Shown here: piece by piece, positions 1,813 through 41,852 of the stretch
Position numbering within the stretch: the stretch's first letter is position 1
How the letters are laid out: the number at the start of each line of letters is the position of its first letter
IMG/VR virus record: IMGVR_UViG_3300037512_000782
Span: 252,732 to 316,731 of that record
From: a virus
Lineage: Duplodnaviria > Heunggongvirae > Uroviricota > Caudoviricetes
Length of the DNA: 64,000 bases
Strand: one strand, 5' to 3'
Notes under the pieces: generated by a model
What the model saw: the letters and a program-made list of their open reading frames with translations, nothing else
Told to the model about the DNA's origin: nothing
Database searches by the model: none
Translations under genes and position numbers: made by a program

Positions 1813-2384
1813 ATGGGATGGACAAGTTGTTATCGCTGGTATTCGCCTACCGTGCTTCGCAAGGAATATGAACAGGGTATTGCTCGATCCGGCAAGATCA
1901 AGACGTTCGGCTGGTGCGGAAGCTTTCTGAAGTGCTTGCACGTGCCCACGAACCGTCCGTTTGTCGTCGATGTTATGGTGCGCTTCTTCGGCAAGCACGA
2001 AGGGTATGGCTACAAGGACATCGGGGCGCTTCCGGCCCCTATGATACCAACATCGCCGCCGCTCGCTGGCTGCGTCGTGAGCTTGCCAAGCGCAACCTCG
2101 ATCCGGAGTCCTTCGAGCACAACTGGCTGCTGTACTGTACGCGCAAGGCTCGCCACAACAAGATGCTCAAGGAGATCGCTCCAGGAACGGTATTGACTGC
2201 GCTCAGGGACTTCACTATCACTGGCGGCTACAAGTTCAGAGCTGGCGAAGCGATTTCGGTCATCAGCGTACGTCGAGGCCGCATAATCTGTACGCCTCAC
2301 TTAGCGCACTGGCCTACTATGAGCTTGTCGTCGGATATTTTCATTCCGTCGCCCTACAAGGACTATCCGCTGGTGGCCGTGTAG
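1813..2384 (+). pseudogene. frameshifted phage protein gene (or single-base assembly error near 2020-2030)
   Basis: SD-led ORF 1813 reads ...YGYKDIG; continuation ...GPYDTNIAAARWLRREL is in the -1 frame and ends at TAG 2384. Confidence 0.55.
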
Positions 2385-2410
2385 ACTGGAGGCAGCCCAG
2401 CGGGGCTGCC
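2384..2410 (+). promoter_or_regulatory. cassette element copy 5
   Basis: GACTGGAGGCAGCCCAGCGGGGCTGCC; alternative stem GGCAGCCC/GGGCTGCC. Confidence 0.85.
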
Positions 2411-2452
2411 GTCCAGTTTTATTTTATTTATACAATCAACCAAGGAGTTAAC

Positions 2453-2866
2453 ATGAAAACTACTCGTTCTTATGTAGGCGATGTCCTCATGTGTTCTCGT
2501 GCTATCGCCAAGCTGGTTCCTACTGAATGGAACGCATTTGCTGCAGCGGAAAACGACGCCAATCTTGAATATGAGGAAGACTACAAGCGCCTCGTGTCCG
2601 AAGTGAACGGCAAGCAGCTCCCCAGCCGCTGCGCCAACTCCCAACTGGTAAAGGCTGCTCGCGATGTCGTCGCCGCCGTCGCCGCCAAGGGCATATCGCT
2701 GACCGTCGGCTACATCTTCAACGAGGTAGAGGCCAGCGTCGTCTTCGGCTTCAACTACCAAGTCCTCGACTACTCTCTGAAGCAGTCCGAAGTCAAGCTC
2801 TTCGAGTCGCTGGGACTGGACATCGACGCCGTCTACATGGACAGCACGTCCTACCTTCCCAACTAG
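2453..2866 (+). CDS. hypothetical protein
   Basis: SD AAGGAG after element 5. Confidence 0.8.
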   Translation: MKTTRSYVGDVLMCSRAIAKLVPTEWNAFAAAENDANLEYEEDYKRLVSEVNGKQLPSRCANSQLVKAARDVVAAVAAKGISLTVGYIFNEVEASVVFGFNYQVLDYSLKQSEVKLFESLGLDIDAVYMDSTSYLPN

Positions 2867-2873
2867 GTAGCCT

Positions 2874-3053
2874 ATGAACAAGCAAGACGAAATAGAACGC
2901 CAGAAGGTCACTCTTTATACGTGGGTGTCCAAGGCGTTCTACAAGAACCTAAAATCTTTTACAGTCCCAGAGAAGTATTCCGAAGCGGCGAAGGATATTG
3001 CCAGCCAGGGCAACGGTTTTCGATACGACGGAAAGGTTCTCTCGTGGGACTAG
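2874..3053 (+). CDS. hypothetical protein (59 aa, not in ORF track)
   Basis: MNKQDEIERQKVTLYTWVSK...VLSWD*; fills the gap between genes. Confidence 0.55.
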   Translation: MNKQDEIERQKVTLYTWVSKAFYKNLKSFTVPEKYSEAAKDIASQGNGFRYDGKVLSWD

Positions 3054-3061
3054 GAGCTGCT

Positions 3062-3241
3062 ATGTTTAAATTTTTGAAACGGCTGTTCTGCCGTCATCAC
3101 TGGAAACGTAGTGTACAGCGACGGCGCAATTTCAATTATGGATCGACATCGTTTTCGTACTACGACTTCTGTGTGTGCAAGTGTACCAAATGCGGTAAGA
3201 AGAAACTTATGAAACAGTATCACTGGGTCGCAATGAACTGA
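3062..3241 (+). CDS. small Zn-ribbon-like protein
   Basis: LFCRHHW...CKCTKCGK; SD AGGAG. Confidence 0.65.
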   Translation: MFKFLKRLFCRHHWKRSVQRRRNFNYGSTSFSYYDFCVCKCTKCGKKKLMKQYHWVAMN

Positions 3242-3262
3242 CACCGTTCCGGCGGGGCTGCC
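3236..3262 (+). promoter_or_regulatory. cassette element copy 6
   Basis: AACTGACACCGTTCCGGCGGGGCTGCC. Confidence 0.85.
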
Positions 3263-3309
3263 TCGCTGGGTTATTTTCTTTATACAACCAATCAACCAAG
3301 GAGTTAACA

Positions 3310-3906
3310 ATGAAAAGATTGTTCAAGAAGGGCGACAAGGTCAACGTGAGCGGCGACTTGTCCAGTAAGGATTACAACGTGCGCGTTTCTTCTCCGGCTG
3401 TCGTCGATGAAGACCAGAAGACGAGCCGTTCTAACGTGTGGGTGACTATCGCCGAAGTAGACGGCGACCATAACGTGTCGCTCTACATCAAGCCGCGTAT
3501 GCTGTCGCTCGTCAAGGAAGAGCTGCCGCGTATCGAGAGCGACGACACCACTCGTGTCTGGGTCAACGAGGAAGCCGGACTGGTCGTGACGGACTTCTTG
3601 GGTTCTGGTGACAATCTGGACGACGACGACATCAAGCAGGGCTTCCACGCCTACTCGATGAACTCCGTCTACCACTTCGACCAGTTCCCAGAAGAGACGT
3701 TCGACTTCTCCAAGCTCGAAGACGTGAATGACGGCGACCTCGACTATGACGGCGACACTGTGGACTGCTACGACAGCAGCATGACCCTTCTGCACAACAC
3801 CGACGAATACGACAAGAAGGAACACTTCGAAATTATTCTCGGTATGCTCAACGTGACCCAGAAGGACGGCTGGAAACAAGTCGCTGGGCCGTTCTTCAAC
3901 GACTAA
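3310..3906 (+). CDS. hypothetical acidic protein
   Basis: SD after element 6. Confidence 0.8.
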   Translation: MKRLFKKGDKVNVSGDLSSKDYNVRVSSPAVVDEDQKTSRSNVWVTIAEVDGDHNVSLYIKPRMLSLVKEELPRIESDDTTRVWVNEEAGLVVTDFLGSGDNLDDDDIKQGFHAYSMNSVYHFDQFPEETFDFSKLEDVNDGDLDYDGDTVDCYDSSMTLLHNTDEYDKKEHFEIILGMLNVTQKDGWKQVAGPFFND

Positions 3907-3933
3907 GACTGGCGATAATCCGGCGGGGCTGCC
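3907..3933 (+). promoter_or_regulatory. cassette element copy 7
   Basis: GACTGGCGATAATCCGGCGGGGCTGCC; stem AATCCGGCG/CGCCGGATT. Confidence 0.85.
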
Positions 3934-3973
3934 TCGCCGGATTATTTTCTTTATACAACCAAGGAGATCAACC

Positions 3974-4411
3974 ATGCCTACCATGAGAGAATTTATCCAG
4001 TCCAATCCGGTCATCTTCGGCAACAAGCGTTTCACCAAGGCTCTTGACAAAGTATTCGGCGACGACCAGTCCAAGCACACCGTTCAGTTCACTTCAGACG
4101 GCGAGCGCGTCAACATCAATTACGCCTCGAAGGACGAAGGCAATCTCATCTTCCAACTCTGCAAAAACAGGGTTGGCGACGGCGAACCCTTCCCAGAATC
4201 GATCGAGGTGCGCCTCTATTACAAGTACAACGGCAGAGATATCTTCCATGACGGCTTCCAGTGCAAGTTCATACCGTACAACGCTACCCAGCAGACCATG
4301 ACAGCGGTACTGCGGCAGCTGTTCAAGATCCACAGTGAAATGACAAACATTCGGCGAGCCCAAGCACAAATCCATAGCCACTTGTTAAAGCTCCACAAGA
4401 TCATGGACTGA
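3974..4411 (+). CDS. hypothetical protein, paralog of 12289-12720
   Basis: Shared NPVIF/HPVLF and AQAQI/HQAQI motifs. Confidence 0.8.
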   Translation: MPTMREFIQSNPVIFGNKRFTKALDKVFGDDQSKHTVQFTSDGERVNINYASKDEGNLIFQLCKNRVGDGEPFPESIEVRLYYKYNGRDIFHDGFQCKFIPYNATQQTMTAVLRQLFKIHSEMTNIRRAQAQIHSHLLKLHKIMD

Positions 4412-4432
4412 CCCAGATCCGGCGGGGCTGCC
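4406..4432 (+). promoter_or_regulatory. cassette element copy 8
   Basis: GACTGACCCAGATCCGGCGGGGCTGCC; alternative stem GGGGCTGC/GCAGCCCC. Confidence 0.85.
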
Positions 4433-4471
4433 ACGCAGCCCCATTTCTTTTATACAACCAAGGAGTTAAAC

Positions 4472-4987
4472 ATGAGCGTTATCTACAACAACACCAAAAA
4501 TGCAACATTTGAAACCGCGAACGCATTCCTCGAAGCTCGCGCTCGCGAAGCTGGCCTCAAGGATTTCGAGTTCGAAAAGGCGTACACCTATCTGAACACG
4601 GAAGTCATCAGTGAAGGACACACGATCGAGTGCGTGTACTTTGAACACAAGTTGAGCCGCCGCAGTATCGGCGTGACCGTCGAGGACGGCGAGGTCACGA
4701 AGGTACTGGTGTACGACACGAACGGCGACTGTCTGAACGTCAAGCTGAACAGCGCAGCCAAGATTCGCAAGAACCCCAAGGACTTCTTCAAGCAGACCTT
4801 GACGCCCAAGAAATACAGTGCGTCGGCGAGCATTAACTACACTATCGAGGTCGAGTGCGTGGCCTACGACGAGGACGAAGCTCGCGAGAAGCTGAAAGAA
4901 GCTGCTTACAACAACTATCTGACAGCGAAGATCGACGGCGTTGACGCTACAATCGACGACATCAGCGACGACGGCTACGTAAAATAA
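4472..4987 (+). CDS. hypothetical protein
   Basis: SD after element 8. Confidence 0.8.
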   Translation: MSVIYNNTKNATFETANAFLEARAREAGLKDFEFEKAYTYLNTEVISEGHTIECVYFEHKLSRRSIGVTVEDGEVTKVLVYDTNGDCLNVKLNSAAKIRKNPKDFFKQTLTPKKYSASASINYTIEVECVAYDEDEAREKLKEAAYNNYLTAKIDGVDATIDDISDDGYVK

Positions 4988-5014
4988 GACTGGCGATAAC
5001 TCGGCGGGGCTGCC
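4988..5014 (+). promoter_or_regulatory. cassette element copy 9
   Basis: GACTGGCGATAACTCGGCGGGGCTGCC. Confidence 0.85.
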
Positions 5015-5054
5015 TCGCTGGGTTATTTTATTTTCACAACCAAGGAGATCTAAG

Positions 5055-5336
5055 ATGGCTACGAAAAAGCAAACCAAGAAGTCTAAAATGTTTCATTTGA
5101 GCGGCTTTCACAAATTCGAGGACGGCATTGAAATTATTAACGTCGAAACACTGTATACGACTCGCCGCAAGGCCGCCAAGGAAATCGCCGACATAATGAA
5201 CGAAACTATCCAGGAAAGCCGCTCTGACAAGCCGAAGGTAAAGGTCGCCGACTGCATGGACGGCTACAGACTGTCGCCGCATGACAGTTTCGAGGAGATC
5301 GGCATTGATATTGTCGAGTCGCACTTACCAGAATAG
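5055..5336 (+). CDS. hypothetical protein
   Basis: SD after element 9. Confidence 0.75.
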   Translation: MATKKQTKKSKMFHLSGFHKFEDGIEIINVETLYTTRRKAAKEIADIMNETIQESRSDKPKVKVADCMDGYRLSPHDSFEEIGIDIVESHLPE

Positions 5337-5362
5337 ACTGGTGCTGGATCGGCGGGACTGCC
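5336..5362 (+). promoter_or_regulatory. cassette element copy 10
   Basis: GACTGGTGCTGGATCGGCGGGACTGCC; stem GATCGGCG/CGCCGATC. Confidence 0.85.
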
Positions 5363-5410
5363 TCGCCGATCTATTCCCTTTATACAACCAATCAACCAAG
5401 GAGTTCTAAC

Positions 5411-6070
5411 ATGCTTTCAAGAGACCAGCTCATCCGTACTTGCCAAGACAACAACATCACGTGCCTTATGTGCTGCCAAGGCTACGAGGCCACCGAAGAG
5501 GACGTTCTGAACGACAACCCAGAACTTGCGCCGGACAACGACGACGCACAGTATCCCAGCCCAGAAGTCCAAAAGGAACGTGACCTCAAGGAATCGGTCA
5601 TGATCCGTATGCTGCAAGAAAACCTCGACTTCGGCCCTCTGATGGAAACCGACGACGAAACCGACCGTGACGATCATTCAGAACGCATGGGCGCTCGCTG
5701 CGACATCGTGGAAGTAATCGCCGAACGCTGGGTGGCTGGTTCCTACTCGGACAACTACCAGAAGACCGAACTGGAACTGGCTCAGGCCGACTGCAACGTG
5801 CTGGTTTCCAAGTGGTACGGTTCAGAACTACTCGACGAAATCGTCGAAGCTCTCTGGGCTACTGGGGAAACTATCACGAACGAACGTGTCGCCGAATACG
5901 TCGGTAGGACAAAGATTGCAGAATTTTTCACTACGACCTCTGCAAAGAACGCCGACGAATTTGCCGAAGAATGTTCTACTGGCTTCTCTGGCAGCCCTAT
6001 CGACGGCTCGCCGTTCACTCGTGACGCCAGCGACGCCTACGCCCACGAATACTGGGACGCCCACGTCTAA
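5411..6070 (+). CDS. hypothetical acidic protein
   Basis: SD after element 10. Confidence 0.8.
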   Translation: MLSRDQLIRTCQDNNITCLMCCQGYEATEEDVLNDNPELAPDNDDAQYPSPEVQKERDLKESVMIRMLQENLDFGPLMETDDETDRDDHSERMGARCDIVEVIAERWVAGSYSDNYQKTELELAQADCNVLVSKWYGSELLDEIVEALWATGETITNERVAEYVGRTKIAEFFTTTSAKNADEFAEECSTGFSGSPIDGSPFTRDASDAYAHEYWDAHV

Positions 6071-6097
6071 GACTGGAACGGATCCGGCGGGGCTGCC
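6071..6097 (+). promoter_or_regulatory. cassette element copy 11
   Basis: GACTGGAACGGATCCGGCGGGGCTGCC. Confidence 0.85.
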
Positions 6098-6150
6098 TCG
6101 CCGGATTATTCATTCTACACAACCAAACAACAAACAACCAAGGAGTTATT

Positions 6151-7035
6151 ATGAAGGTTATTTCTCTGTTCGACGGCATTTCTTGCGGTCAAGTCGCTCT
6201 CAACCGTGCTGGCATCAAGGTAGACCAGTACGTCGCCTTCGAGATCGAGGCTTCCGCCATCAAGATCACCCAAGCCAACTTCCCTGACACTGTCCAAGGC
6301 GGCGACGTGACCAAGGCCGACTTCACCCAGTACCCAGCCGACCTCATCATCGGCGGCAGCCCTTGCCAGTTCTGGTCTGGCGCTCGCGCTGGCCACGGTC
6401 GCGAAACTACAGCCGACGGTCTGGGCTGGTCGCTCTTCCAGCAGTATGTCCGCGCCAAGAACGAAAGCGGCGCTCGCTGGTTCCTCTACGAGAACAACGC
6501 CTCGATCCACCAGAACATCAAGGACGCCATCAGTGACGCGCTGGGTGTCCAGCCGATCGAGATCAACTCCGCGCTGGTATCCGCCCAGAACCGCCGTCGC
6601 TGCTACTGGACGAACATTCCCAACGTGGCACAGCCAGCCGACCGTGGGATCTTGTTGTCGTCCGTACTGGAACACGGCACTGTTGACCGCGAAAAATCTT
6701 TGTGCTTGACGCGCCGCTATTCCGAAGCCTACGGAACCCAAGCCTATATGTGTCGCCGCTATCTCGGCAAGTCCATGGGTCAGATGGTGTTCGAGGGCGA
6801 CATGGAAGCTCTGAAAAATCTTTTCAAGCGCAACGACCACTTCAGCGACATGGACGGCGAACTCACTGGCTGCCGTATCCGCCAGCTCACGCCGCTGGAA
6901 GCTGAAAGGCTCCAGACACTGCCAGACAACTACACGGCTTCTGAACCGAACCGCAAGAAGCGTCTGGAAGCCATCGGCAACGGCTGGACGGTCGAAGTCA
7001 TCGCCCACTTGCTGTCTGGACTGGCTGAAAAATAA
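6151..7035 (+). CDS. DNA (cytosine-5)-methyltransferase
   Basis: Motif I SLFDGISCG, motif IV GGSPCQ, VI ENN, VIII QNRRR, IX-X LTPLEAERLQ...IGNGW. Confidence 0.92.
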   Translation: MKVISLFDGISCGQVALNRAGIKVDQYVAFEIEASAIKITQANFPDTVQGGDVTKADFTQYPADLIIGGSPCQFWSGARAGHGRETTADGLGWSLFQQYVRAKNESGARWFLYENNASIHQNIKDAISDALGVQPIEINSALVSAQNRRRCYWTNIPNVAQPADRGILLSSVLEHGTVDREKSLCLTRRYSEAYGTQAYMCRRYLGKSMGQMVFEGDMEALKNLFKRNDHFSDMDGELTGCRIRQLTPLEAERLQTLPDNYTASEPNRKKRLEAIGNGWTVEVIAHLLSGLAEK

Positions 7036-7045
7036 ATTTTGAAAT

Positions 7046-7072
7046 GGAGCTGGAGAAATCCAGCTCCGTTTT
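7046..7072 (+). terminator. intrinsic terminator after MTase gene
   Basis: GGAGCTGGA-GAAA-TCCAGCTCC then GTTTT. Confidence 0.75.
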
Positions 7073-7092
7073 CGTCTATCCAGTCCTCTGAC

Positions 7093-7119
7093 AACTGGCA
7101 CACTGGCGGCGGGGCTGCT
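7093..7119 (+). promoter_or_regulatory. cassette element copy 12 (no own stem)
   Basis: AACTGGCACACTGGCGGCGGGGCTGCT. Confidence 0.75.
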
Positions 7120-7162
7120 GGATCGACGTATTCATCAGATACAACCCAAACAAGGAGACATT

Positions 7163-7510
7163 ATGGGACTCGACATTACTCTCAAGACATGCAAGAGCGA
7201 CAAATATTTTCGCAAGGTCAACTTCTTGATTCCGTTCGTGGAATCAAAGATCGGCTGCACGGTGGAGAACTGTGAGACAGTCAAGCTGACCAAGGACAAC
7301 CTCGTGGAACTGGTTGATCGGTGCAAGGAAGTGCTTGCCGATCACTCTAAGGCCGAGAAGCTGCTGCCTACTCGCGACGGGTTCTTCTTCGGCGGCACAG
7401 ACTACGACGAATGGCACTTCGATGATGTCAAGGAAGTACAAGACAAGGTAAGCGACCTTCTGTCAACGATGTCTAATCGGATGAAGGCCAGCTTCCATGC
7501 CTGGTGGTAG
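7163..7510 (+). CDS. conserved phage protein (MGLD...YFRK type)
   Basis: Pattern MGLDI..YFRKVNFL..FFFGGTDYDE; SD. Confidence 0.75.
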   Translation: MGLDITLKTCKSDKYFRKVNFLIPFVESKIGCTVENCETVKLTKDNLVELVDRCKEVLADHSKAEKLLPTRDGFFFGGTDYDEWHFDDVKEVQDKVSDLLSTMSNRMKASFHAWW

Positions 7511-7536: not shown

Positions 7537-7583
7537 TCGCTGGATTATTTTATTTCTACAACCCACACAACCAAGGAGATATT

Positions 7584-9000: not shown

Positions 9001-9291
9001 ATGAAAAATTGCAAGATGAATACCAAGGTCAACGCCCTTATCAAGAAGGTCGAGGAAGCTCAAGAAAAAACTGTCGCCATTCTCGGCGACCTCAAAAACT
9101 GGAAGTCCTATCCCAATGAGGACGCCAGCAGCGACCGTCTGATCGAAAAGGTGTTCAAGGAAGTCGACGACTTCGTTAACACAGTAAACGGCTTGCAGAA
9201 GATGTCAGAGGCAGCCAGCCAGTTGCACACCCAGCAACTCGACGGCCTTGTAGACGACATTCTGCACAAGCGCGGAATATACAAGGAGTAG
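9001..9291 (+). CDS. hypothetical helical protein
   Basis: SD GAGGAG; coupled to upstream gene. Confidence 0.75.
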   Translation: MKNCKMNTKVNALIKKVEEAQEKTVAILGDLKNWKSYPNEDASSDRLIEKVFKEVDDFVNTVNGLQKMSEAASQLHTQQLDGLVDDILHKRGIYKE

Positions 9292-9317
9292 ACTGGCGGC
9301 AGCCCTGCGGGACTGCC
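9291..9317 (+). promoter_or_regulatory. cassette element copy 16
   Basis: GACTGGCGGCAGCCCTGCGGGACTGCC. Confidence 0.85.
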
Positions 9318-9360
9318 TCATTCTGATATAATTTAGACACAACCAATAAGGAGCTACATT

Positions 9361-10178: not shown

Positions 10179-10208
10179 CTGGGCGGAAGCAATTCCGCCC
10201 AGTTTTTT
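10179..10208 (+). terminator. intrinsic terminator
   Basis: CTGGGCGGAA-GCAA-TTCCGCCCAG then T6. Confidence 0.85.
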
Positions 10209-10227: not shown

Positions 10228-10254
10228 GACTGGCAAAGAATCAGCGGGGCTGCT
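10228..10254 (+). promoter_or_regulatory. cassette element copy 17 (no own stem)
   Basis: GACTGGCAAAGAATCAGCGGGGCTGCT. Confidence 0.8.
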
Positions 10255-11363: not shown

Positions 11364-11390
11364 GACTGGCCGCCAGCTGGCGGGACTGCC
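11364..11390 (+). promoter_or_regulatory. cassette element copy 19
   Basis: GACTGGCCGCCAGCTGGCGGGACTGCC; stem AGCTGGCG/CGCCAGCT. Confidence 0.85.
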
Positions 11391-11444
11391 TCGCCAGCTT
11401 ATTCATTCTACACAACCAACCAAACCAATCAAGGAGATTTAATC

Positions 11445-12050: not shown

Positions 12051-12171
12051 GGGTCGATAGTATAACGGCAAATCACGCCGGACGGGCAAATCAGACAGTT
12101 GCGGCTCGCGAGGAACGGCTGTCTGGGAACCTGGCTTTCCGGAGATGTTGGTTCGAATCCAGCTCGGCCCA
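12051..12171 (+). tRNA. tRNA-like RNA with a 55-nt structured insertion replacing the anticodon loop; identity unassignable; CCA not encoded
   Basis: Acceptor GGGTCGA/TCGGCCC + A73; D-arm TAGTATAACGGCAAATCAC; anticodon stem CCGGA/TCCGG; T-arm GTTGG-TTCGAAT-CCAGC; 3' end reads ACTA. Confidence 0.65.
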
Positions 12172-13273: not shown

Positions 13274-13306
13274 GCTCCAGATCCTTCGGGATCTGGGGCA
13301 TTTTTT
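13274..13306 (+). terminator. intrinsic terminator
   Basis: GCTCCAGATCC-TTCG-GGATCTGGGGC then A-T6; cUUCGg tetraloop. Confidence 0.85.
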
Positions 13307-13362: not shown

Positions 13363-13391
13363 TTGACAGACCACACGCGGTATATTATATT
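13363..13391 (+). promoter_or_regulatory. sigma70-type promoter
   Basis: TTGACA-N17-TATATT. Confidence 0.75.
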
Positions 13392-14317: not shown

Positions 14318-15170
14318 TCAGCTCGTAATCAAGGGCGAAAAAGCAACTCTCGAAGAAATTGCCAAGAAGGGCAAGCCAGTCTATACCGTTCCGGCCAATA
14401 TGACCGTGGCCGAATACATCCGCCACGAGTGCGAAAAGGACAACCTCACCGAACACTGCACCAATCTGCTCATCCAACGCTATGAAGGTGTCGAACCGGA
14501 TGCCGAACGCAATATCCCCGTGTTCGATATCTACGGCAATACCGATGCGTTCTCCTTCAACCTCTTTGTCCCCCAGGACAAGGACGACCCCGACTATCAG
14601 AACGGTCTCGAATCGCACTGCACCACCAAGTTCAACTGGTACGACTGGAACCTCCACCACTGGGGAACCAAGTGGGATGCCTCCGACTCCTCCGTCGAAT
14701 GGGAAGGCGATGCTCTCGTCGTCAAGTTCAACACGCCTTGGTCTGTTCCGGTAGAATTTATCGAAGCGTTCTCCAAGCTCTATCCCAAGGTCTCCATCGC
14801 AGTCTACGCCTACGAAGAACAGGGCCAGTACACCCACGGTGTCTATGCCGACGGCGTTGGTGATATGGCTCCCTATGTCTGGTGCAGCGAACAAGTTGAC
14901 CGTGACGAAATCGCCAAGAAGTTCCTCGACGACTTCGCCCAGAAGAACGGTATCGAAAACATCGCCAGTATCATCAACCTCGAAACCTTCAAGGAAAAGG
15001 CGTTCTTCGATGTCCAAGACGAAGAAGACATCAGAAAGTACGCCGAACCGACCGTCGTCATCAACTACTTCGACGACAACAACGAACTCCTCGAACTCCT
15101 CAAGCAGTCCACCGACGAAGGCGACTGGGAGTACGACGAAAAGGAAAATAAGTTCTCCTACAAAAAATAA
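14298..15170 (+). CDS. YubB/DUF1281-like ferredoxin-fold phage protein
   Basis: MPNWVNN..WYDWNLHHWGTKWDA..FNTPWSVP. Confidence 0.75.
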   Translation: MPNWVNNQLVIKGEKATLEEIAKKGKPVYTVPANMTVAEYIRHECEKDNLTEHCTNLLIQRYEGVEPDAERNIPVFDIYGNTDAFSFNLFVPQDKDDPDYQNGLESHCTTKFNWYDWNLHHWGTKWDASDSSVEWEGDALVVKFNTPWSVPVEFIEAFSKLYPKVSIAVYAYEEQGQYTHGVYADGVGDMAPYVWCSEQVDRDEIAKKFLDDFAQKNGIENIASIINLETFKEKAFFDVQDEEDIRKYAEPTVVINYFDDNNELLELLKQSTDEGDWEYDEKENKFSYKK

Positions 15171-15185
15171 TTTTTTCCTTGGTTG

Positions 15186-15218
15186 GCCTACGGTTCCTTC
15201 TCGGAGCCGTAGGCTTTT
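15186..15218 (+). terminator. intrinsic terminator
   Basis: GCCTACGGTTCC-TTCTC-GGAGCCGTAGGC then TTTT. Confidence 0.8.
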
Positions 15219-15245
15219 GTTTCTTTTTCTTTACAAGAGGCTATC

Positions 15246-15473
15246 ATGGCTACCATCGCTGAACAGACTGTCATCGACGAACTCACCAAGCGCAAGATCA
15301 AGTTCGACCCCAAATCCATCAAGGAATCCAGTTCCGGTAGGATCGTCGAACTGCCGAACCCCACAATAAAACTTATCCGCGAAGAAGAAGGATGGACGAT
15401 CTTCGACTGCAAGAAGGGTAAGGTAGGCGGCGGAGACTCCCTCGCCGAATGCATCGAAGCGATCTATCCGTAG
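15246..15473 (+). CDS. hypothetical protein
   Basis: SD GAGG. Confidence 0.7.
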   Translation: MATIAEQTVIDELTKRKIKFDPKSIKESSSGRIVELPNPTIKLIREEEGWTIFDCKKGKVGGGDSLAECIEAIYP

Positions 15474-15482
15474 GAGTCCCAA

Positions 15483-15692
15483 ATGAAAACTTTCAGAGTC
15501 ATCTTGTCCCTCATCGTCCTCGTCGTCATCTTCACCGAGTTCGTCAAGGTGAGCCTTCCCTTCATGGACACACTCGACCGGAGCTGCGCACAAGGTCTCG
15601 CCACCGGAGCCGCTATAATACTGGCCCATATCTTCGGCGCTTCCGTAGTCCTCTATTACGGAATCGCTATAGATATCTTCGACGACGAGTAG
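15483..15692 (+). CDS. small 2-TM membrane protein
   Basis: Two hydrophobic segments; SD AGGAG. Confidence 0.7.
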   Translation: MKTFRVILSLIVLVVIFTEFVKVSLPFMDTLDRSCAQGLATGAAIILAHIFGASVVLYYGIAIDIFDDE

Positions 15693-16519: not shown

Positions 16520-16546
16520 AACTGGCAGCCCCTCGGCGGGACTGCC
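16520..16546 (+). promoter_or_regulatory. cassette element copy 24
   Basis: AACTGGCAGCCCCTCGGCGGGACTGCC. Confidence 0.85.
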
Positions 16547-18069: not shown

Positions 18070-18094
18070 CAATCTATCAACAATCTATCAACAA
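18069..18094. repeat. 11-bp tandem repeat ACAATCTATCA x2.4
   Basis: acaatctatca acaatctatca acaa. Confidence 0.85.
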
Positions 18095-18125
18095 GCTGTG
18101 AACAGTGCTTCACGGCTTCTTTTTT
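18093..18125 (+). terminator. intrinsic terminator
   Basis: AAGCTGTGAA-CAGTGC-TTCACGGCTT then C and a T-run. Confidence 0.75.
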
Positions 18126-20878: not shown

Positions 20879-20905
20879 GACTGGTCGTGGCGTGGCGGGA
20901 CTGCC
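20879..20905 (+). promoter_or_regulatory. cassette element copy 28
   Basis: GACTGGTCGTGGCGTGGCGGGACTGCC; stem GCGTGGC/GCCACGC. Confidence 0.85.
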
Positions 20906-20945
20906 ACGCTGGTTTATTGGGCGTGTACGAACCAAGGAGAACTAT

Positions 20946-25776: not shown

Positions 25777-25797
25777 TAGGGCCGTGGCGGGACTGCC
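25771..25797 (+). promoter_or_regulatory. cassette element copy 33
   Basis: AACTGATAGGGCCGTGGCGGGACTGCC. Confidence 0.85.
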
Positions 25798-25838
25798 ACG
25801 ACCCTTTATTCATTTGGCACAACCAACCGAGGTACAAC

Positions 25839-26610: not shown

Positions 26611-26639
26611 TTGACAAAATACTTTTCAAGAGTTATATT
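26611..26639 (+). promoter_or_regulatory. sigma70-type promoter
   Basis: TTGACA-N17-TATATT. Confidence 0.8.
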
Positions 26640-28545: not shown

Positions 28546-28548
28546 CCA

Positions 28549-28575
28549 GACTGGGACAGTCCCGGCGGGACTGCC
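28549..28575 (+). promoter_or_regulatory. cassette element copy 35
   Basis: GACTGGGACAGTCCCGGCGGGACTGCC; stem CAGTCCC/GGGACTG. Confidence 0.85.
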
Positions 28576-28614
28576 CCTTCTTACCATTCATAAAGCACAA
28601 CAAGGAGTATATCT

Positions 28615-29198: not shown

Positions 29199-29450
29199 AT
29201 GAAACGATACCTTATCAACGCGATTCTCAGCGGCATATTATCTGGAATGATGCTAGTTGTGTTCGCCTACTTCTTGAATCAGTACATCTTTCTGTGTACA
29301 GACCTCTTGATGTACACTTCATCGAGCAACCGCGCCTTTATGTTCTTTACATGCGCTATCACGTTCGCCGTATTCTTGTGGAACACGATAAATTGCGTGT
29401 ACAGCACGGTGAAGCTGCTTTCGGTGGTGAATCGGCTTTCGGACAATTAG
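29199..29450 (+). CDS. small 2-TM protein
   Basis: Hydrophobic segments; SD GAGGT. Confidence 0.7.
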   Translation: MKRYLINAILSGILSGMMLVVFAYFLNQYIFLCTDLLMYTSSSNRAFMFFTCAITFAVFLWNTINCVYSTVKLLSVVNRLSDN

Positions 29451-29476
29451 ACTGGCGGCGGTCTCGCGGGACTGCC
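29450..29476 (+). promoter_or_regulatory. cassette element copy 36
   Basis: GACTGGCGGCGGTCTCGCGGGACTGCC. Confidence 0.85.
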
Positions 29477-29518
29477 ACCTTCTTTGATCATTTGTACAAC
29501 CCCAACAAGGAGACTTAT

Positions 29519-30220: not shown

Positions 30221-30245
30221 CTGATCCGCCGACGGCGGGACTGCC
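30219..30245 (+). promoter_or_regulatory. cassette element copy 37
   Basis: AACTGATCCGCCGACGGCGGGACTGCC; stem GCCGACGGC/GCCGTCGGC. Confidence 0.85.
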
Positions 30246-30287
30246 GTCGGCCTTTATTACGAAAGCAACCCAACAAGGAGAATCATC

Positions 30288-32565: not shown

Positions 32566-32594
32566 TTGACAAACACTTTGCTAAGAGTTATATT
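32566..32594 (+). promoter_or_regulatory. sigma70-type promoter
   Basis: TTGACA-N17-TATATT. Confidence 0.8.
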
Positions 32595-35434: not shown

Positions 35435-35461
35435 GACTGATCCAAGGTCTGCGGGACTGCC
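35435..35461 (+). promoter_or_regulatory. cassette element copy 39
   Basis: GACTGATCCAAGGTCTGCGGGACTGCC; stem GGTCTGCGG/CCGCAGACC. Confidence 0.85.
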
Positions 35462-35501
35462 TCCGCAGACCATTTTAACACGCACACACAAGGAGACTAC
35501 T

Positions 35502-36107: not shown

Positions 36108-36136
36108 TTGACAAAAGTCAAAATAAGAGTTATATT
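36108..36136 (+). promoter_or_regulatory. sigma70-type promoter upstream of FtsK gene
   Basis: TTGACA-N17-TATATT. Confidence 0.8.
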
Positions 36137-36155
36137 ACTAGGCGGAGGTATCACC

Positions 36156-37826
36156 ATGTACAAAGGTTGCTACAATAGCTATAAGTTCGATATGACCGAC
36201 ACTCATGCCATTGCCTACTACGGCATTGACACCAAGGACTTCACGTTTATAAAGAACAGCTATGTGTTCAATCGTCGCACCAACTTGGAAGGTAGCGCCG
36301 ATGCCGATCTGGCTGAACGTGTTGTCGGAGCTATCTCTAGCTTCGGTGTGAATGGTGTCCAAGTGGATAGCATCGAGTGCGGCCCCGTGGTGACTCGCGT
36401 GAACTTGAAGTTGCCGTATGGTGTTCGCATCAAGACGGTTGCAGACTTGTCTAACGACATCGCTATGCAGCTCAATGTCAAGAGCGTGTCCGCTACTCCG
36501 GTGCCCGAAAAGGGTGTCCTCGCCTTGGACATTCCCGCCAAGGAACGCAAGGTCATCCGTTTGGGAAATGTTCACACGGAGAAGTCTAGCACTATGGCTC
36601 TTCCGCTTGAACTCGGCGTGTCTGTCACTGGCGAAGCTCGTGCTATCGACTTGGCGAAGGCTCCGCATCTTCTGATTGCTGGTCAGACTGGCTCTGGCAA
36701 GTCCGTCTGCATCAACTCCATCATCTGCTCGTTGCTCCGTAACGTGCCGCTGAACGACTTCGACTTGATGCTTGTCGATCCGAAGGGTGTCGAATTGAAC
36801 GATTACCGCTTCGTTCCGAACTGCATCAACAAGAAGGTTCTCGTCGAACCGAACGAGTCGCTTGATGGCCTCCGTTGGCTCTGCAAGGAAATGGATCGCC
36901 GCTATGCTATCTTGACGAAGTATGGGCATCGCAACCTTCAGTCCTACAACGATTGGGTGAGCAAGCAGCCTGTCGGTAAGGATTGTGTAGAGAAGATGCG
37001 CTATGTTGTCTGTGTGGTTGACGAGTTTGCCGACTTGATGATGACTGCTGGCACCGAACTCACGGCAATCGTGCAGAGACTGGCTCAGAAGAGCCGTGCG
37101 GTTGGTATTCACTTGATTCTCGCCACGCAGAGACCGTCTGTCAAGGTGGTCACTGGCGATCTCAAGGCAAACTTGCCGTGCCGTATCGCCTTCAAGGTCA
37201 GTTCCACCACCGACTCCGTGACCATCCTCGGTCATGGCGGTGCCGAACGCTTGCTCGGTATGGGCGACATGATTCTCAGCAACAACGATGTTGATGAGCG
37301 CTTGCATGGTGTGTATCTTGATGACCACGACATCTTCTACACCGTCGCGGTTCTCTACAACACGACCGTAAACTCCATCATTCGCGAAGTCGATTTCGTG
37401 AACGGAAAGGCATCTAACTCGTTGGGCGTTCCGTCTTGGCTCTTGGAGACCATGAGCGAATGCGGTCGCCGTCAGCTCGCTAGCGGTTCTCCGTCTTGGC
37501 TTGAAAAGCTCGTAGATATTAACCGCAAGGTTTGGGATCGCTCGGTTGACGAGAACAAGTACACCTTCGCCACGTTCATGTGCCGTATGGCAAAGTATTA
37601 TGGCGAGGTCGAAGCTATCCGTCCGCTTGTCGCTAGCAGCGTGTTCGGAAAGGCCGTGTCGGCTCGTTCTGTTGGCAATGTGTACGGCACTATGCTTGAT
37701 ACCATGCTTCGTCTTCCGACAAAGTATGCACTTGGTCTCGGATACTCCGACCCTGATGTAAAGCAAGCGTTGAGCCGAACTGCAAGTGTCAACGATCAGT
37801 TGGATTACTTGAAGTCCATCGCATAG
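36156..37826 (+). CDS. ftsK: FtsK/SpoIIIE-family DNA translocase motor (alpha/beta domains; no N-terminal TM)
   Basis: GPVVTR, PHLLIAGQTGSGKS (Walker A), VDPK, VVDEFADLM (Walker B), LATQRPS, GAERLLGMGDM; SD GGAGG. Confidence 0.9.
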   Translation: MYKGCYNSYKFDMTDTHAIAYYGIDTKDFTFIKNSYVFNRRTNLEGSADADLAERVVGAISSFGVNGVQVDSIECGPVVTRVNLKLPYGVRIKTVADLSNDIAMQLNVKSVSATPVPEKGVLALDIPAKERKVIRLGNVHTEKSSTMALPLELGVSVTGEARAIDLAKAPHLLIAGQTGSGKSVCINSIICSLLRNVPLNDFDLMLVDPKGVELNDYRFVPNCINKKVLVEPNESLDGLRWLCKEMDRRYAILTKYGHRNLQSYNDWVSKQPVGKDCVEKMRYVVCVVDEFADLMMTAGTELTAIVQRLAQKSRAVGIHLILATQRPSVKVVTGDLKANLPCRIAFKVSSTTDSVTILGHGGAERLLGMGDMILSNNDVDERLHGVYLDDHDIFYTVAVLYNTTVNSIIREVDFVNGKASNSLGVPSWLLETMSECGRRQLASGSPSWLEKLVDINRKVWDRSVDENKYTFATFMCRMAKYYGEVEAIRPLVASSVFGKAVSARSVGNVYGTMLDTMLRLPTKYALGLGYSDPDVKQALSRTASVNDQLDYLKSIA

Positions 37827-37852
37827 ACTAAAATAATGGGTACGGGGCTGCC
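37826..37852 (+). promoter_or_regulatory. cassette element copy 41
   Basis: GACTAAAATAATGGGTACGGGGCTGCC; 13-bp stem with two G-T pairs. Confidence 0.8.
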
Positions 37853-37896
37853 ACGGCTCCGTATCCATTTGTCACAAACTAACCAAAGGAAGCAAT

Positions 37897-38358
37897 ATGA
37901 AAACTGGATTAAAAGACCTCAAGGGCAATGAAATTAACATCGGCGACAAGTTTCGATTCATTTATACGGATCCTATGGGCAAGCCGTTTCCAGAAACTCT
38001 CGATGACGGCTTGTACGAAATCGCCTATGAACATGGCGCTGTCGTAGCCAAGTACATCGACGGCCACGGCGTAGAGACCGAGAACTCTCGCCTTCTCCGT
38101 AATTGGATTGAGACCGAGGAAGGCCGCTACATCAGCAACTACGGCCCTCTTACCGTCTTCAAGAACGATGTCGTGCTTGGCGAAGTCGTCGAAAAGGGTC
38201 CTGGCGAACTCGATGTCGAGAAGCTTCTCATGACGCTCATCGACAACATCGAATATGTCTACGCAAAGACCGACGGCACGTACGGAAACTTGCATCCGAA
38301 CATTTCTGGAAATGTACAGTACATCCGCGACCAGATCCGCAAGCACAAGAAAGATTAA
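37897..38358 (+). CDS. YopX-family phage protein
   Basis: KTGLKDLKGNEINIGD motif; C-terminal EVVG-like VVLGEV. Confidence 0.6.
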   Translation: MKTGLKDLKGNEINIGDKFRFIYTDPMGKPFPETLDDGLYEIAYEHGAVVAKYIDGHGVETENSRLLRNWIETEEGRYISNYGPLTVFKNDVVLGEVVEKGPGELDVEKLLMTLIDNIEYVYAKTDGTYGNLHPNISGNVQYIRDQIRKHKKD

Positions 38359-38376
38359 CTTTTTAGCTACTACCTA

Positions 38377-38405
38377 TTGACAAACCAGTAGGTAGAAGTT
38401 ATATT
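38377..38405 (+). promoter_or_regulatory. sigma70-type promoter
   Basis: TTGACA-N17-TATATT. Confidence 0.8.
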
Positions 38406-38423
38406 TTAACCAGAGGTAGAAAC

Positions 38424-38723
38424 ATGATTAGATACAAGGTCACATCGACCCACATAAACCCGGCCTACAGACCGAAAATAACTTGGGTGAACACCAAGGA
38501 AGAAGCCGAAGCCGTCAAGGCCCACGAGGCTCCGATCGCCGTCAGCGACATTCAAGAATGCGAAATTCCTGATGCCATGTACGAAAAGATCAAGGCTCGT
38601 CTCTCCGAAAGCGAACCGTTCTGCAAGCTGAAAGAATACGAACAGTTTGACGATATCTATATGTGCTATCGTCGTATGCTCTGCGCCCTCGACGATTTCT
38701 ACGATTCTCGCTACGCCTACTAG
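38424..38723 (+). CDS. hypothetical protein
   Basis: SD GAGGT after sigma70 promoter. Confidence 0.75.
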   Translation: MIRYKVTSTHINPAYRPKITWVNTKEEAEAVKAHEAPIAVSDIQECEIPDAMYEKIKARLSESEPFCKLKEYEQFDDIYMCYRRMLCALDDFYDSRYAY

Positions 38724-38731
38724 GAGCCGCC

Positions 38732-38962
38732 ATGAAGACAAAGTATATGATTCGTCGTGAGTTCTACGGAGTCATGCCTAAGTTGGGTGTATTCGACACC
38801 AAGCAGCTTGCCGAACGGCAGATTCAGTTGCTTCCAGAAGTAATGACGGACTACGACCACTTCGCCGTAGAGGAAATACCTTGTCCGGAATGCGAGGAAG
38901 AGTTCACCATCGACTTCCGTCGAGCAAACAAGAAACAAGATGAGGAAAAATCCAATGGTTAA
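38732..38962 (+). CDS. hypothetical protein
   Basis: Start moved to the ATG at 38732 (SD AGGAG). Confidence 0.7.
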   Translation: MKTKYMIRREFYGVMPKLGVFDTKQLAERQIQLLPEVMTDYDHFAVEEIPCPECEEEFTIDFRRANKKQDEEKSNG

Positions 38963-39230
38963 ATTCTACAAAGTCAGTTTGTCGCTCACTGGACTGATGT
39001 GCCTAGCGTCTGGCGTATACACGATATGGCGTTTCGACCAGTGGAATGACGGCGTTCTCCAAGTGATTTTGGGAACTATCTTACTGGTCGGCTACATCCT
39101 CTTGGATGTCTTGTCGAATATGGCGATTGTCACCAAGGTTGAAGTCATCAAGCCGGACGGCGTGAACGTGCAAATCGTCAACAAGAACTGTATCGACGGC
39201 AACGGGACTGCCTCGGACAAAGATAAATAA
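38955..39230 (+). CDS. 2-TM membrane protein
   Basis: Hydrophobic; reads through element 42. Confidence 0.7.
   Translation: MVKFYKVSLSLTGLMCLASGVYTIWRFDQWNDGVLQVILGTILLVGYILLDVLSNMAIVTKVEVIKPDGVNVQIVNKNCIDGNGTASDKDK
39186..39212 (+). promoter_or_regulatory. cassette element copy 42 (inside 3' end of upstream ORF)
   Basis: AACTGTATCGACGGCAACGGGACTGCC. Confidence 0.75.
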
Positions 39231-39265
39231 GGCACACTCAACAAATTAAACAAAAAGGAATTTTT

Positions 39266-39508
39266 ATGCGCTGTGGATTACGAAAAATAGATAAGTCTAT
39301 GCAAGACATCGTCAAGAACGCTGTACGAAGCGGTCGATGGGAACAGAAATGGGGTCGAAAGCACATGAAGCTCGTCATGAAGGATACTCCTTCCAAGTGG
39401 ATTCCCATTGCTGGCTCCTCTCGCGACCAGGCCCACGCAGCCAAGAACTTGACTTCCGAAATCCGCCGTCTCGAAAGAGAAGCTGGCTTCACTGAATTTT
39501 CTGTGTAG
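39266..39508 (+). CDS. small basic protein, possibly HicA-like
   Basis: RW..KWGRKHMKL..IPIAGSSRD..AAKNL pattern. Confidence 0.4.
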   Translation: MRCGLRKIDKSMQDIVKNAVRSGRWEQKWGRKHMKLVMKDTPSKWIPIAGSSRDQAHAAKNLTSEIRRLEREAGFTEFSV

Positions 39509-39517
39509 GGGTCAACA

Positions 39518-39808
39518 ATGACTTTTGACGAATACGAACAAAAACAGCACGAAGTCGACATGTTTAGAATGAATGTCCAGTGCGCAATCTGCGGAGTGCT
39601 TGGCATCAATGCTGGCGACACCGACGGATCCACATTCCACTTCAACCGCGTAAGCGATACCGATATCGAATACCATATCGACTACGTGGATGGCCGTCGC
39701 AAGGCAATCGACCGCAAGATGGACATCAAGCTCGTAGAGCTTGCAATGGAAGGCAACGTGGCCATGGCGCGTGACCAGTACCTTGAACTTTATTGCCGAG
39801 CGAGGTAA
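39518..39808 (+). CDS. hypothetical protein
   Basis: SD AGGGG. Confidence 0.7.
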   Translation: MTFDEYEQKQHEVDMFRMNVQCAICGVLGINAGDTDGSTFHFNRVSDTDIEYHIDYVDGRRKAIDRKMDIKLVELAMEGNVAMARDQYLELYCRAR

Positions 39809-39810
39809 GT

Positions 39811-40041
39811 ATGGCAATCGAAAACATCGAAGACTATTGGCGCGGTGAACCGAACTTCGGACTCCACAGACAAGAATGGGTGATCGAAGTCGACTGCCGA
39901 GGCACCGACATCGAAGACATCATTCCGAGGCAGCGCATCAAGCTGGCGACCACCAATCTCAAACCGCCTAGCGACGACAGATTCATTAGCATGTGCGCTA
40001 TGGGACTGGTGCCGACGGTTGGCGAATTACTCACAAGATAA
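39811..40041 (+). CDS. hypothetical protein
   Basis: Start moved to the ATG at 39811 (SD GAGGT). Confidence 0.65.
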   Translation: MAIENIEDYWRGEPNFGLHRQEWVIEVDCRGTDIEDIIPRQRIKLATTNLKPPSDDRFISMCAMGLVPTVGELLTR

Positions 40042-40061
40042 TCAAAAAAGGAATTACAACC

Positions 40062-40547
40062 ATGTTTACGAAAATCAGCAACTTCATTGAACGCATTTCC
40101 GAATGGTTCTTGTGGAGAAGCATCAAGAAGAAACTGCGCCCATTTGTCAAGGTAAGGAAGGTATTGCAGCCGAACGAAGTTCCGAGCTACATGCATCTCA
40201 TTCTCCGTTCGCTCCAGAATCGCGAGTATTCTGGAATTATCTTGCTGTCCAACAACAAGCGGATCTACAACTACATCCAGAGGACTCTGGGAGATACCAA
40301 TACAGTGTTCTTCCGTGAGCCGTTCACCTTCAATCCGGACAAGCTCTTCGACAAGATCAAGGAGTACGCCACGCCTCTCCATGTCGATTACGCGGTGACT
40401 GGCTACGGGAACGACTCTCCGTTCTACATTCTGGCCGTGCCGAACGACCGCAAGCCGAACGACGGACTGAACTACGATCAGCGGGACTGCCACAAGAAAC
40501 CATTGAATAAGCGCACCAAAAACCACAAAAAACACAACAAGGAGTAA
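40062..40547 (+). CDS. hypothetical protein
   Basis: Start moved to the ATG at 40062; reads through element 43. Confidence 0.7.
   Translation: MFTKISNFIERISEWFLWRSIKKKLRPFVKVRKVLQPNEVPSYMHLILRSLQNREYSGIILLSNNKRIYNYIQRTLGDTNTVFFREPFTFNPDKLFDKIKEYATPLHVDYAVTGYGNDSPFYILAVPNDRKPNDGLNYDQRDCHKKPLNKRTKNHKKHNKE
40465..40491 (+). promoter_or_regulatory. cassette element copy 43 (inside 3' end of upstream ORF)
   Basis: GACTGAACTACGATCAGCGGGACTGCC. Confidence 0.8.
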
Positions 40548-40553
40548 TCAACC

Positions 40554-41081
40554 ATGTTCACAACCCTCAGTATCCTCGTCTACCTCGCAGAAGTTATCGA
40601 ACGTGTCGAAGCCGTCACCTTCGGGCTCGGTCTGTTCTTCGGAATATCCGCCTGTATCTCGCTCATAATAATGGGCTGTTGCGCTGCTGAAAACGAGTTC
40701 GACACTTCGAAGACTGGCGTCAAGAAGTGGTGCAAGTACACCTTTATCAGCGTTATCGTCGCCGTCGTGTTCATCGCCTTGTCCGCTTTAGTTCCGACCA
40801 AGAAGGCCGTATACATGATTGCTGGCATACAAGCCGCCGAATACCTGGTCAACACCGAAACCGCCAAGGACATCGGCAACGAAGGCGTCAAGATCTTCAA
40901 GGACGTTGGAACTATCATCCACAGCTATGCGGTTGATGCGGTTGGCACAGTGAAGGAAAAGGTCACTGACGGAGCCAAGAAGGCGGCTGAAACTACTAGC
41001 AAGGTCGTCGAAGCCGTGAAGGACAGTGCATCTTCTGTGGTGAAGGAGACCGTCAAGGAAACCATAGGCACGGACAAGTGA
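40554..41081 (+). CDS. 2-TM membrane protein with amphipathic repeat tail
   Basis: Hydrophobic segments; VKE..V repeats. Confidence 0.75.
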   Translation: MFTTLSILVYLAEVIERVEAVTFGLGLFFGISACISLIIMGCCAAENEFDTSKTGVKKWCKYTFISVIVAVVFIALSALVPTKKAVYMIAGIQAAEYLVNTETAKDIGNEGVKIFKDVGTIIHSYAVDAVGTVKEKVTDGAKKAAETTSKVVEAVKDSASSVVKETVKETIGTDK

Positions 41082-41082
41082 T

Positions 41083-41778
41083 ATGATTGACACGCAGTTC
41101 GAAGAAAAAATCTCTGTACAGCTTGCTCAGCGCATCGAAGCTCGCATGCCGTTCGCCAAGAAAATCTATGACGCGGTCGGCAGCTTCTATGTGGCTGGCA
41201 ACAGCCTTAACGAGGAAGCGCCGAACGATTTCGACATATACCCCGTATGGAAGAATCAGTTCGACGATGTCCGCAGCAAGATCGGTGAAGACAACGTAGT
41301 GTGCGTGACGAAGAACGCCGTTACTGCGAAGATCGATGGCAGAACCGTCCAGTTCTGCAACTACTTCAAGCCGTCGCTCGAAGAACTTCTGAAGTCATTC
41401 GACTTCGCCCATGTCCAAGTGGGTGCGAGGTTCACCAAGGCGCTCGACGGTTCTCCGATAAGCAACGTGGACTTCACGCCTGACTGGCTCGTCGCCAAGT
41501 CCACCGGGCAGACGTTCTATACCCATTCCGAATATCCGATTTCCTCGCTCGTTCGTATCAACAAGTACATCAAGCGCGGAAACTACGTCGGAAAGTCGTA
41601 TATCAGGGATGTCGTCCGCATCTTGACCGACATCCTCAACCGTGGCATCGAGGACTACGAAGACTTCAAGGATCAGCTCGACGCCATCGACCTCGGCTTG
41701 TTCGGAGAAGACGCCAGTACGGTTCTCGGACTGTTCCACGCATTCCAGAACGTGAAGCCGACTCCGTCGATAGAATGA
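41083..41778 (+). CDS. nucleotidyltransferase-fold protein (PolA/CCA-like head)
   Basis: FYVAGNSL...PNDFDIY; VQFC; LLKSFDF. Confidence 0.6.
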   Translation: MIDTQFEEKISVQLAQRIEARMPFAKKIYDAVGSFYVAGNSLNEEAPNDFDIYPVWKNQFDDVRSKIGEDNVVCVTKNAVTAKIDGRTVQFCNYFKPSLEELLKSFDFAHVQVGARFTKALDGSPISNVDFTPDWLVAKSTGQTFYTHSEYPISSLVRINKYIKRGNYVGKSYIRDVVRILTDILNRGIEDYEDFKDQLDAIDLGLFGEDASTVLGLFHAFQNVKPTPSIE

Positions 41779-41799
41779 TTTGGGTACGGCGGGACTGCT
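41773..41799 (+). promoter_or_regulatory. cassette element copy 44
   Basis: GAATGATTTGGGTACGGCGGGACTGCT; stem CGGCGG/CCGCCG extended imperfectly. Confidence 0.8.
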
Positions 41800-41852
41800 C
41801 CGCCGACCGATCATTTTGGCAACCGACATCAACATCAACAAGGAGAACCATC

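Follow-up and report, generated by a model that had tools for sequence, protein, structure and literature searches.

The 64,000-nucleotide stretch of DNA analysed here, referred to as the window, comprises bases 252,732-316,731 of the 348,092-bp phage record IMGVR_UViG_3300037512_000782 (estimated completeness ~91%) and carries a long array of a repeated intergenic element. Each copy keeps three short sequence boxes at fixed spacing, and the bases left free by the boxes form hairpins in several different registers around the same conserved core. Our analysis suggests that the element is probably a composite stop-start signal, in which the boxes would serve as a promoter and the free bases as a terminator hairpin.

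The conserved unit exceeds the GGGRCTGCC core. Numbered from the first G of the core (+1), it consists of GACTG, 12 bases, C-GGGRCTGCC, 9 bases and TAT, and covers ~40 bp. The three boxes are designated Box A (GACTG, -18 to -14), Box B (C-GGGRCTGCC, -1 to +8) and Box C (TAT(T), +18 to +21); A-17 and T-15 of Box A as well as A19 and T20 of Box C are present in 74/74 copies. In a representative element at 3907-3946, delimited by conservation across the 74 copies, Box A (GACTG) lies at 3907-3911, Box B (C-GGGGCTGCC) at 3924-3933 and Box C (TATT) at 3943-3946. The boxes are direct repeats, not inverted ones. On the 3' side of Box C there follow a T-rich stretch, a weaker tAcAAC block, AAGGAG and the start codon. 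A start codon with a Shine-Dalgarno (SD) sequence is found 46-102 nt past the core start in 73/74 copies (median 52), a purine occupies +30 in 70/74 copies, and the invariant A19 breaks up the T-run. In 48/70 copies the upstream gene ends within or right beside Box A, its stop codon forming TAG-ACTG, T-AA-CTG or GAC-TGA with the box. All three boxes are retained in copies without any hairpin, and Box A falls outside most stems. A third GACTG in the 9-base spacer of hairpin-less copies was considered and rejected, as it is rare (9-13/398) and no commoner than control words.

The window contains 42 exact matches to GGGRCTGCC against 0.5 expected, 40 of which are on the plus strand. An iterated position weight matrix (PWM) scan of the whole record detected 74 three-box copies between genome positions 232,249 and 297,007, every one on the plus strand, and no minus-strand copy in the 348,092 bp. 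The same scan of five shuffled genomes returned a single borderline match (12.4 bits against a threshold of 12 bits). The window holds 44 of the 74 copies, with core positions 29 to 44276, and its part of the array extends from 11 to 44297 with one element per small plus-strand gene (coordinates below are those of the window and on the plus strand unless stated otherwise). The median spacing between copies is 746 bp, about one small gene per element.

To the copies of this genome we added those of relatives. A metagenome scan with the exact three-box pattern yielded 80 loci on many contigs with 359 further unique copies, which never occupy both strands of one locus; a scan of IMG/VR with the same pattern gave no match. 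Box conservation in the relatives is partly circular because of this retrieval, whereas the stem tests are not, since the stems lie outside both the search pattern and the masked PWM. The register tests described below used the 324 relatives' copies that score at least 26 bits. Judged by these matches, the element is widespread among uncultured large-phage relatives. The FtsK-like protein of the array was tried as a marker of this phage group and rejected, its 47 relative loci being without the core.

We folded positions -19 to +21 of each copy as RNA. The mean folding energy of the 74 copies was -15.1 kcal/mol, compared with -10.75 ± 0.26 kcal/mol in column shuffles (z ~ -16), -10.76 ± 0.26 kcal/mol in within-arm shuffles and -11.7 kcal/mol in left/right chimeras. 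The real folds are stronger than the shuffles and the chimeras, indicating that the pairing is copy-specific and not a property of the consensus. The original prediction, made from the letters of the window, had proposed that one core is built into at least four kinds of hairpin; its folding claim held against the column, within-arm and chimeric controls alike, and every hairpin it cited, at positions of all four types, was recovered by folding. A hairpin of its own with at least 7 bp is present in 40/74 copies, and the hairpin is weak or absent in 27/74.

Hairpin types were assigned from at least seven contiguous pairs in a register i+j and compared with column shuffles. Type I (register 10) was found 23 times in this genome against 8.0 expected (0/300 shuffles) and 94 times against 25.6 in the relatives' copies (z 14.8). 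Type II, where the complement of the core lies upstream of it (register -3, here -4 to -2), was marginal in this genome (7 against 1.6) and strongly enriched in the relatives (24 against 3.4, z 11.8). Type III, in which the core pairs downstream (register 18), occurred 8 times against 1.4 (0/300) here and 13 times against 4.6 in the relatives (z 4.7). Type IV (register 5) was again marginal in this genome (4 against 0.8, 2/300) and was not enriched in the relatives (4 against 3.0, z 0.7). These sequence counts establish three of the four predicted types, I, II and III, as classes. The type IV hairpins are individually strong (-18 to -20 kcal/mol), but the counts do not support them as a class of their own.

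The type I copies had been described as carrying the core in the loop between covarying flanks. The variable flanks indeed pair, but the outer core bases pair as well (GGG/CTC, including G-U), and the loop is only CUG or ACUGC (3 or 5 nt). Examples in register i+j = 10 are the hairpins at 20-48, which is followed by a T-run, and at 3914-3946, which has 15 pairs and a folding energy of -24.2 kcal/mol; a different stem (GATCGGCG/CGCCGATC) is seen at 5345-5373, and further stems at 11375-11399 (AGCTGGCG/CGCCAGCT) and, type I-like and identified by folding, at 35446-35471 (GGTCTGCGG/CCGCAGACC). The hairpins at 20-48, 3914-3946, 5345-5373 and 11375-11399 were also detected by the terminator scan. 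At 862-886 the sequence shows a degenerate copy in which two G are missing from Box B but the type I hairpin and its T-run persist. This copy represents a naturally occurring allele with a changed core and a retained stem, and its ortholog in a relative (locus L050) is intact.

Type II hairpins were identified by folding at 2384-2418 (-28.6 kcal/mol, then a T-run), 9290-9324 (with a bulge; comparison showed that orthologs in relatives keep the pairing), 16524-16546 (one mismatch), 28548-28581 and 29449-29483 (with G-U pairs, then a T-rich 9-base spacer). Folding likewise placed a type III hairpin at 4424-4442 (GGGGCTGC/GCAGCCCC). A second one, assigned to 37836 with 13 bp and two G-T pairs in the original prediction, is present at 37839-37865 and has the core paired downstream, but it contains 12 pairs, three of them G-U, and uses a register of its own, 16. 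The type IV hairpins fold at 20888-20911 (GGGACT loop), 25778-25805 and 30228-30251.

Compensatory changes are seen in the stems. Among 102 type I copies, which were pre-selected for pairing so that the unselected tests carry the weight, 109 cells were changed on both sides compared with 31 ± 5 in shuffles, and the covariation score was 0.358 in the type I register against at most 0.161 in slid registers. In type III, the sole variable core base (R at +3) pairs with +15 in 17/17 copies, as A-T in 10 and G-C in 7 with no wobble pair.

The terminator half of the proposed signal is strongly supported by the sequence data. A generic terminator scan flags the hairpins of the element, and in types I, II and III the T-run directly follows the stem. 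For type II, whose stems end at +8 to +11, the T count in +9 to +17 is 4.5, compared with 2.4 for copies without a hairpin and 2.25 for type I (p = 2e-8). The stems of types I and III end at +15 to +19, and the next 8 nt hold 5.2-5.3 T compared with 4.0-4.2 at these positions in hairpin-less copies (p = 2e-14 and 1e-4, respectively). In type IV (n = 6), a shift of the T-run with the stem end was not seen. The folds are those of the sense strand: they are more stable than the antisense folds by 1.83 kcal/mol, where 1.08 ± 0.12 is expected from the consensus. Internal mismatches of type I stems are G-U in 27 cases and A-C in 9 (p = 0.004), a bias that appears only for type I after restriction to internal mismatches, as a count including the stem ends showed none.

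In these features the hairpins resemble intrinsic terminators. The stems are GC-rich and 7-15 bp long, the loops have 3-6 nt, the T-run starts 0-2 nt off the stem, and a GC-rich hairpin followed by a U-run is found on the transcribed strand in types I, II and III. They differ from ordinary intrinsic terminators in being part of an invariant motif that constrains them, and in having the T-run interrupted by an invariant A.

The hairpins of the element are complementary in occurrence to separate terminators upstream. In this genome, 2 copies have both an own hairpin and an upstream terminator, 38 have the own hairpin only, 12 the upstream terminator only and 22 neither (Fisher p = 0.002); the corresponding numbers in the relatives are 18, 113, 92 and 89 (Fisher p = 4e-12). 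A strong terminator had been predicted upstream of each stemless copy. Separate intrinsic-terminator-like hairpins were detected by the terminator scan at 10179-10202, 13274-13299 and 18093-18118, before the hairpin-less copies at 10246, 13343 and 18161 (10228, 13325 and 18143 in the prediction), whereas the copy at 7093 is preceded by only a weak 5-bp stem. The scan also found a separate 6-bp terminator-like hairpin at 334-349, ahead of the copy at 400, which has no hairpin of its own. In this genome and in the relatives alike, the separate terminators all end at almost the same distance from the core, at -41 to -46. This fixed distance suggests a longer conserved variant of the cassette, consisting of a terminator, a linker of ~25 nt and the boxes.

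Comparison of junctions between phages revealed that the hairpin type turns over. Junctions that share the downstream gene switch from type I to III, from I to II, from IV to II and from no hairpin to type I. The type III copy at 4424 is type I in two relatives (L100 and L119), with an identical segment from Box A to the 5' arm and differing upstream genes. The copy at genome position 247,428 is type I here and type III in L097, where both flanks are common and just two or three bases differ. The type IV copy at 30237 is type II in L129 before the same downstream gene, the type I copy at genome position 251,979 is type II in three relatives, and one hairpin-less copy is type I in L052. The copy at genome position 246,173 differs from its counterpart in L097 by a compensatory change from A-T to G-C.

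At a given junction, many relatives have only the downstream gene in common. Pairs of copies that share a flank comprise 51 with both flanks and 167 and 174 with one flank only, counts in which the upstream flank may partly belong to an extended element. It was also considered that crossover in the core would make type II hairpins follow the upstream gene and type III hairpins the downstream one; this was not supported, as type III is concordant in 7/10 pairs with a shared upstream gene compared with 2/10 with a shared downstream gene, and type II pairs were too few. Since the boxes are invariant in hairpin-less copies while the registers written into the 12-base and 9-base spacers vary and turn over, sequence and structure appear to be selected separately, as had been proposed.

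The superposition of a terminator and a promoter was also proposed in the original prediction. Its terminator is supported by the shift of the T-run, the complementarity with upstream terminators and the G-U bias of type I, whereas we infer the promoter from the orientation and position of the element, the constant distance to the SD sequence and ATG, the hairpin-less first copy and A19. The first copy (genome position 232,249) heads the plus-strand block, and the preceding 5.7 kb holds only minus-strand open reading frames. This copy lacks a hairpin, its T-run is poor, and no sigma70-like plus-strand promoter was found in the 474 bp scanned around it (231,857-232,330). A terminator does not require A19 inside the T-run, and this base therefore counts for the promoter reading. 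The purine at +30 or the invariant A19 is a candidate transcription start.

As to what might read the boxes, two proteins of the sigma-70 family, both with regions 2 and 4, are encoded in the phage genome, at genome positions 14,688-15,506 (minus strand) and 198,197-198,937 (plus strand). Neither a multisubunit nor a T7-type RNA polymerase was detected in the phage, the search for the latter having been run without a positive control, and the genome contains no match to PF09114, the MotA activation domain. It is possible, and we propose it tentatively, that the boxes are the promoter of a phage-encoded specificity factor, a sigma or an activator, common to a widespread clade of uncultured large phages. 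If this is true, the variants in hairpin register would be ready-made separation-of-function alleles, in which a terminator is written through a promoter with the contact bases untouched.

The genome also carries a second promoter class, TTGACA-N17-TATATT, with 11 plus-strand and 6 minus-strand members. Pattern matching located five of these sigma70-type promoters in the array, at 13363-13391, 26611-26639, 32566-32594, 36108-36136 and 38377-38405. Those at 13363 and 36108 stand directly 3' of a three-box element, which results in tandem signals.

As a composite stop-start signal, each element would pack into the ~70 bp separating one stop codon from the next ribosome site. The three boxes would be recognised as double-stranded DNA, most likely by the host RNA polymerase redirected by a phage factor, either one of the two sigmas or an activator. 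The freely varying bases between and beside the boxes would encode the RNA hairpin, and the hairpin together with the following T-run would end the transcript of the upstream gene. Several registers would work because the GC-rich core fits the loop, the 3' arm or the 5' arm. Recombination and mutation would then shift junctions among registers, while selection would retain the boxes plus some terminator.

Several observations weigh against this proposal. The boxes match no known -35/-10 geometry, the gap between Box B and Box C being 9 bp, and Box C lacks the conserved T at the equivalent of -7, the final T of the -10 hexamer. At about 29% of the junctions, both the own hairpin and the upstream terminator are absent. 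The internal mismatches of type II stems (9 against 10) show no G-U bias. In addition, the copies are related by descent and recombination, and all p-values and shuffles given here overstate their independence.

The most serious rival accepts that the hairpins terminate and assigns the boxes to another phage protein, such as a repressor, an insulator or a nucleoid protein, with transcription reading through from the sparser sigma70-type promoters. The five perfect TTGACA-N17-TATATT promoters inside the array speak for it, as does a box geometry that fits no known sigma. However, terminators at most junctions would starve the downstream genes unless transcription were re-initiated, the first plus-strand gene has the boxes only and no sigma70-like promoter, and the distance to the SD sequence and ATG is constant. 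We regard this explanation as unlikely.

A slightly poorer candidate is an element that acts as RNA only and by which a long polycistronic transcript is cut or protected, for instance as a ribozyme half-site or as a site of processing, stability or antitermination. The sense-strand bias and the G-U pairs speak for it. However, different copies place the core in different parts of the fold (loop, 5' arm or 3' arm), so that there is no single RNA shape to present it, and about a quarter of the copies are hairpin-less yet have all boxes. An Rfam search placed no family on the element even at E values up to 10, which counts against a ribozyme or other RNA-only function, and the T-run tracks the stem end as termination expects.

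We consider it very improbable that the hairpin forms in DNA for recognition, as in the promoters of the N4 virion RNA polymerase or in integron attC sites. The N4 promoters depend on a short hairpin that presents a conserved sequence immediately before the start. Type I copies similarly display a conserved sequence on a variable stem, and the array, with its small-gene cassettes all in one orientation and their neighbours reshuffled, is as this explanation would have it. However, the boxes are kept in the copies with a weak or absent hairpin, and the structural position of the core and the register vary by copy, unlike at N4 promoters. Moreover, G-U exceeds A-C in type I stems, the boxes are direct, many copies are hairpin-less, and neither an integrase or tyrosine recombinase (no PF00589 match in the genome) nor, within the limits of the search noted above, a T7-family polymerase was found; the element thus does not conform to attC sites either. 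It is just as improbable that the hairpins are functionless, neutral by-products of cassette duplication and recombination: many stems are common to paralogous copies and some have chimeric arms (e.g., 3254 and 5006), but the T-run moves with the stem end, the hairpins are complementary to the separate terminators, compensatory changes occur, and the enrichment over column shuffles was repeated in an independent set.

The closest known systems are the promoter-early stem-loops (PeSLs) of the T4-like phages phi1 and RB49 (PMC2839356, PMC4122927). A PeSL is arranged in the order of upstream stop codon, strong sigma70-like promoter, stem-loop terminator, SD sequence and start codon (Arbiol et al. 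2010, PMC2839356). PeSLs repeat before many small ORFans in hyperplastic regions and fall into five subclasses according to the stem-loop, which may precede the -35 and -10 boxes, overlap them, lie between them or follow them; G-T pairs are indicated in the stems (PMC2839356). The stem-loop is a terminator or attenuator, promoter and terminator activities were shown by lacZ fusions, and relatives show gene shuffling in association with the cassettes (PMC2839356, PMC4122927). The concept of one promoter sequence with several hairpin placements was thus already published in 2010.

The three-box element shares with PeSLs the repeated unit of upstream stop codon, putative promoter, hairpin, SD sequence and start codon. 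The stem-loop position likewise varies around a constant sequence, registers 10, -3 and 18 being enriched, and the cassettes mark gene gain, loss or replacement between relatives. In contrast to PeSLs, the constant part is the three-box motif and not a near-consensus sigma70 early promoter (TTGACA-N17-TATAAT), and for this reason we do not count the element as a PeSL. Furthermore, the conserved GC-rich core is itself recruited into the hairpin, as its loop or as either of its arms, and the T-run relocates with the register. While the activity of PeSLs was shown by lacZ fusions, that of the three-box element is predicted from its sequence.

A phage-specific box in place of the -35 box is known from T4 middle promoters, in which the MotA box TGCTT is located 12 ± 1 bp upstream of a sigma70 -10 box (PMC2988021), and the PmSLs of Vibrio phage nt-1 are built on such a Mot-box middle promoter (Comeau et al. 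2014, PMC4122927). The likeness of the three-box element to these signals lies in the phage-specific box, the downstream box that starts with TA and, for nt-1, the added stem-loop. It differs from T4 middle promoters in that TGCTT is absent, the gap is 9 instead of 12 ± 1 bp, no MotA domain was found, Box A is present as an additional box 20 bp upstream, and Box C is without the conserved final T of the -10 hexamer. In a literature search, the core motif was not found as a phage signal.

Apart from ORFans, the array contains genes for a C-5 cytosine DNA methylase (6151-7035) and an FtsK/SpoIIIE-family ATPase (36108-37826), each behind its own element. Inside the array, the full tRNA model of Rfam matches 121 nt at 12051-12171 with 40.7 bits (gathering score 29), and ARAGORN finds no tRNA; the match may represent a tRNA interrupted by a long insertion or an element that resembles a tRNA. 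From about 47000 to 64000 the coding strand turns to minus and the element vanishes. This minus-coding region includes genes for a calcineurin-like phosphoesterase (49282-50349), an SLT-domain transglycosylase (55851-56618), an AAA ATPase (61372-62574) and an MFS transporter (62644-63777), the last of which is unusual in a phage.

The concept is unchanged from the PeSL work of 2010, whereas the three-box motif, the recruitment of the core, the relocation of the T-run and the spread in uncultured relatives are different. If the element is read as proposed, its hundreds of natural copies show how 45 bp accommodate two overlapping signals, of which one is read in the sequence of the DNA and the other in the shape of the RNA: the contact bases would be fixed, and the free bases would be rewritten to any register that still yields a hairpin and a T-run. 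As a natural data set, the copies would be useful for deriving the rules by which compact terminator-promoter insulators can be designed, and for tracing the factor behind a putative non-sigma70 promoter in widespread large uncultured phages.

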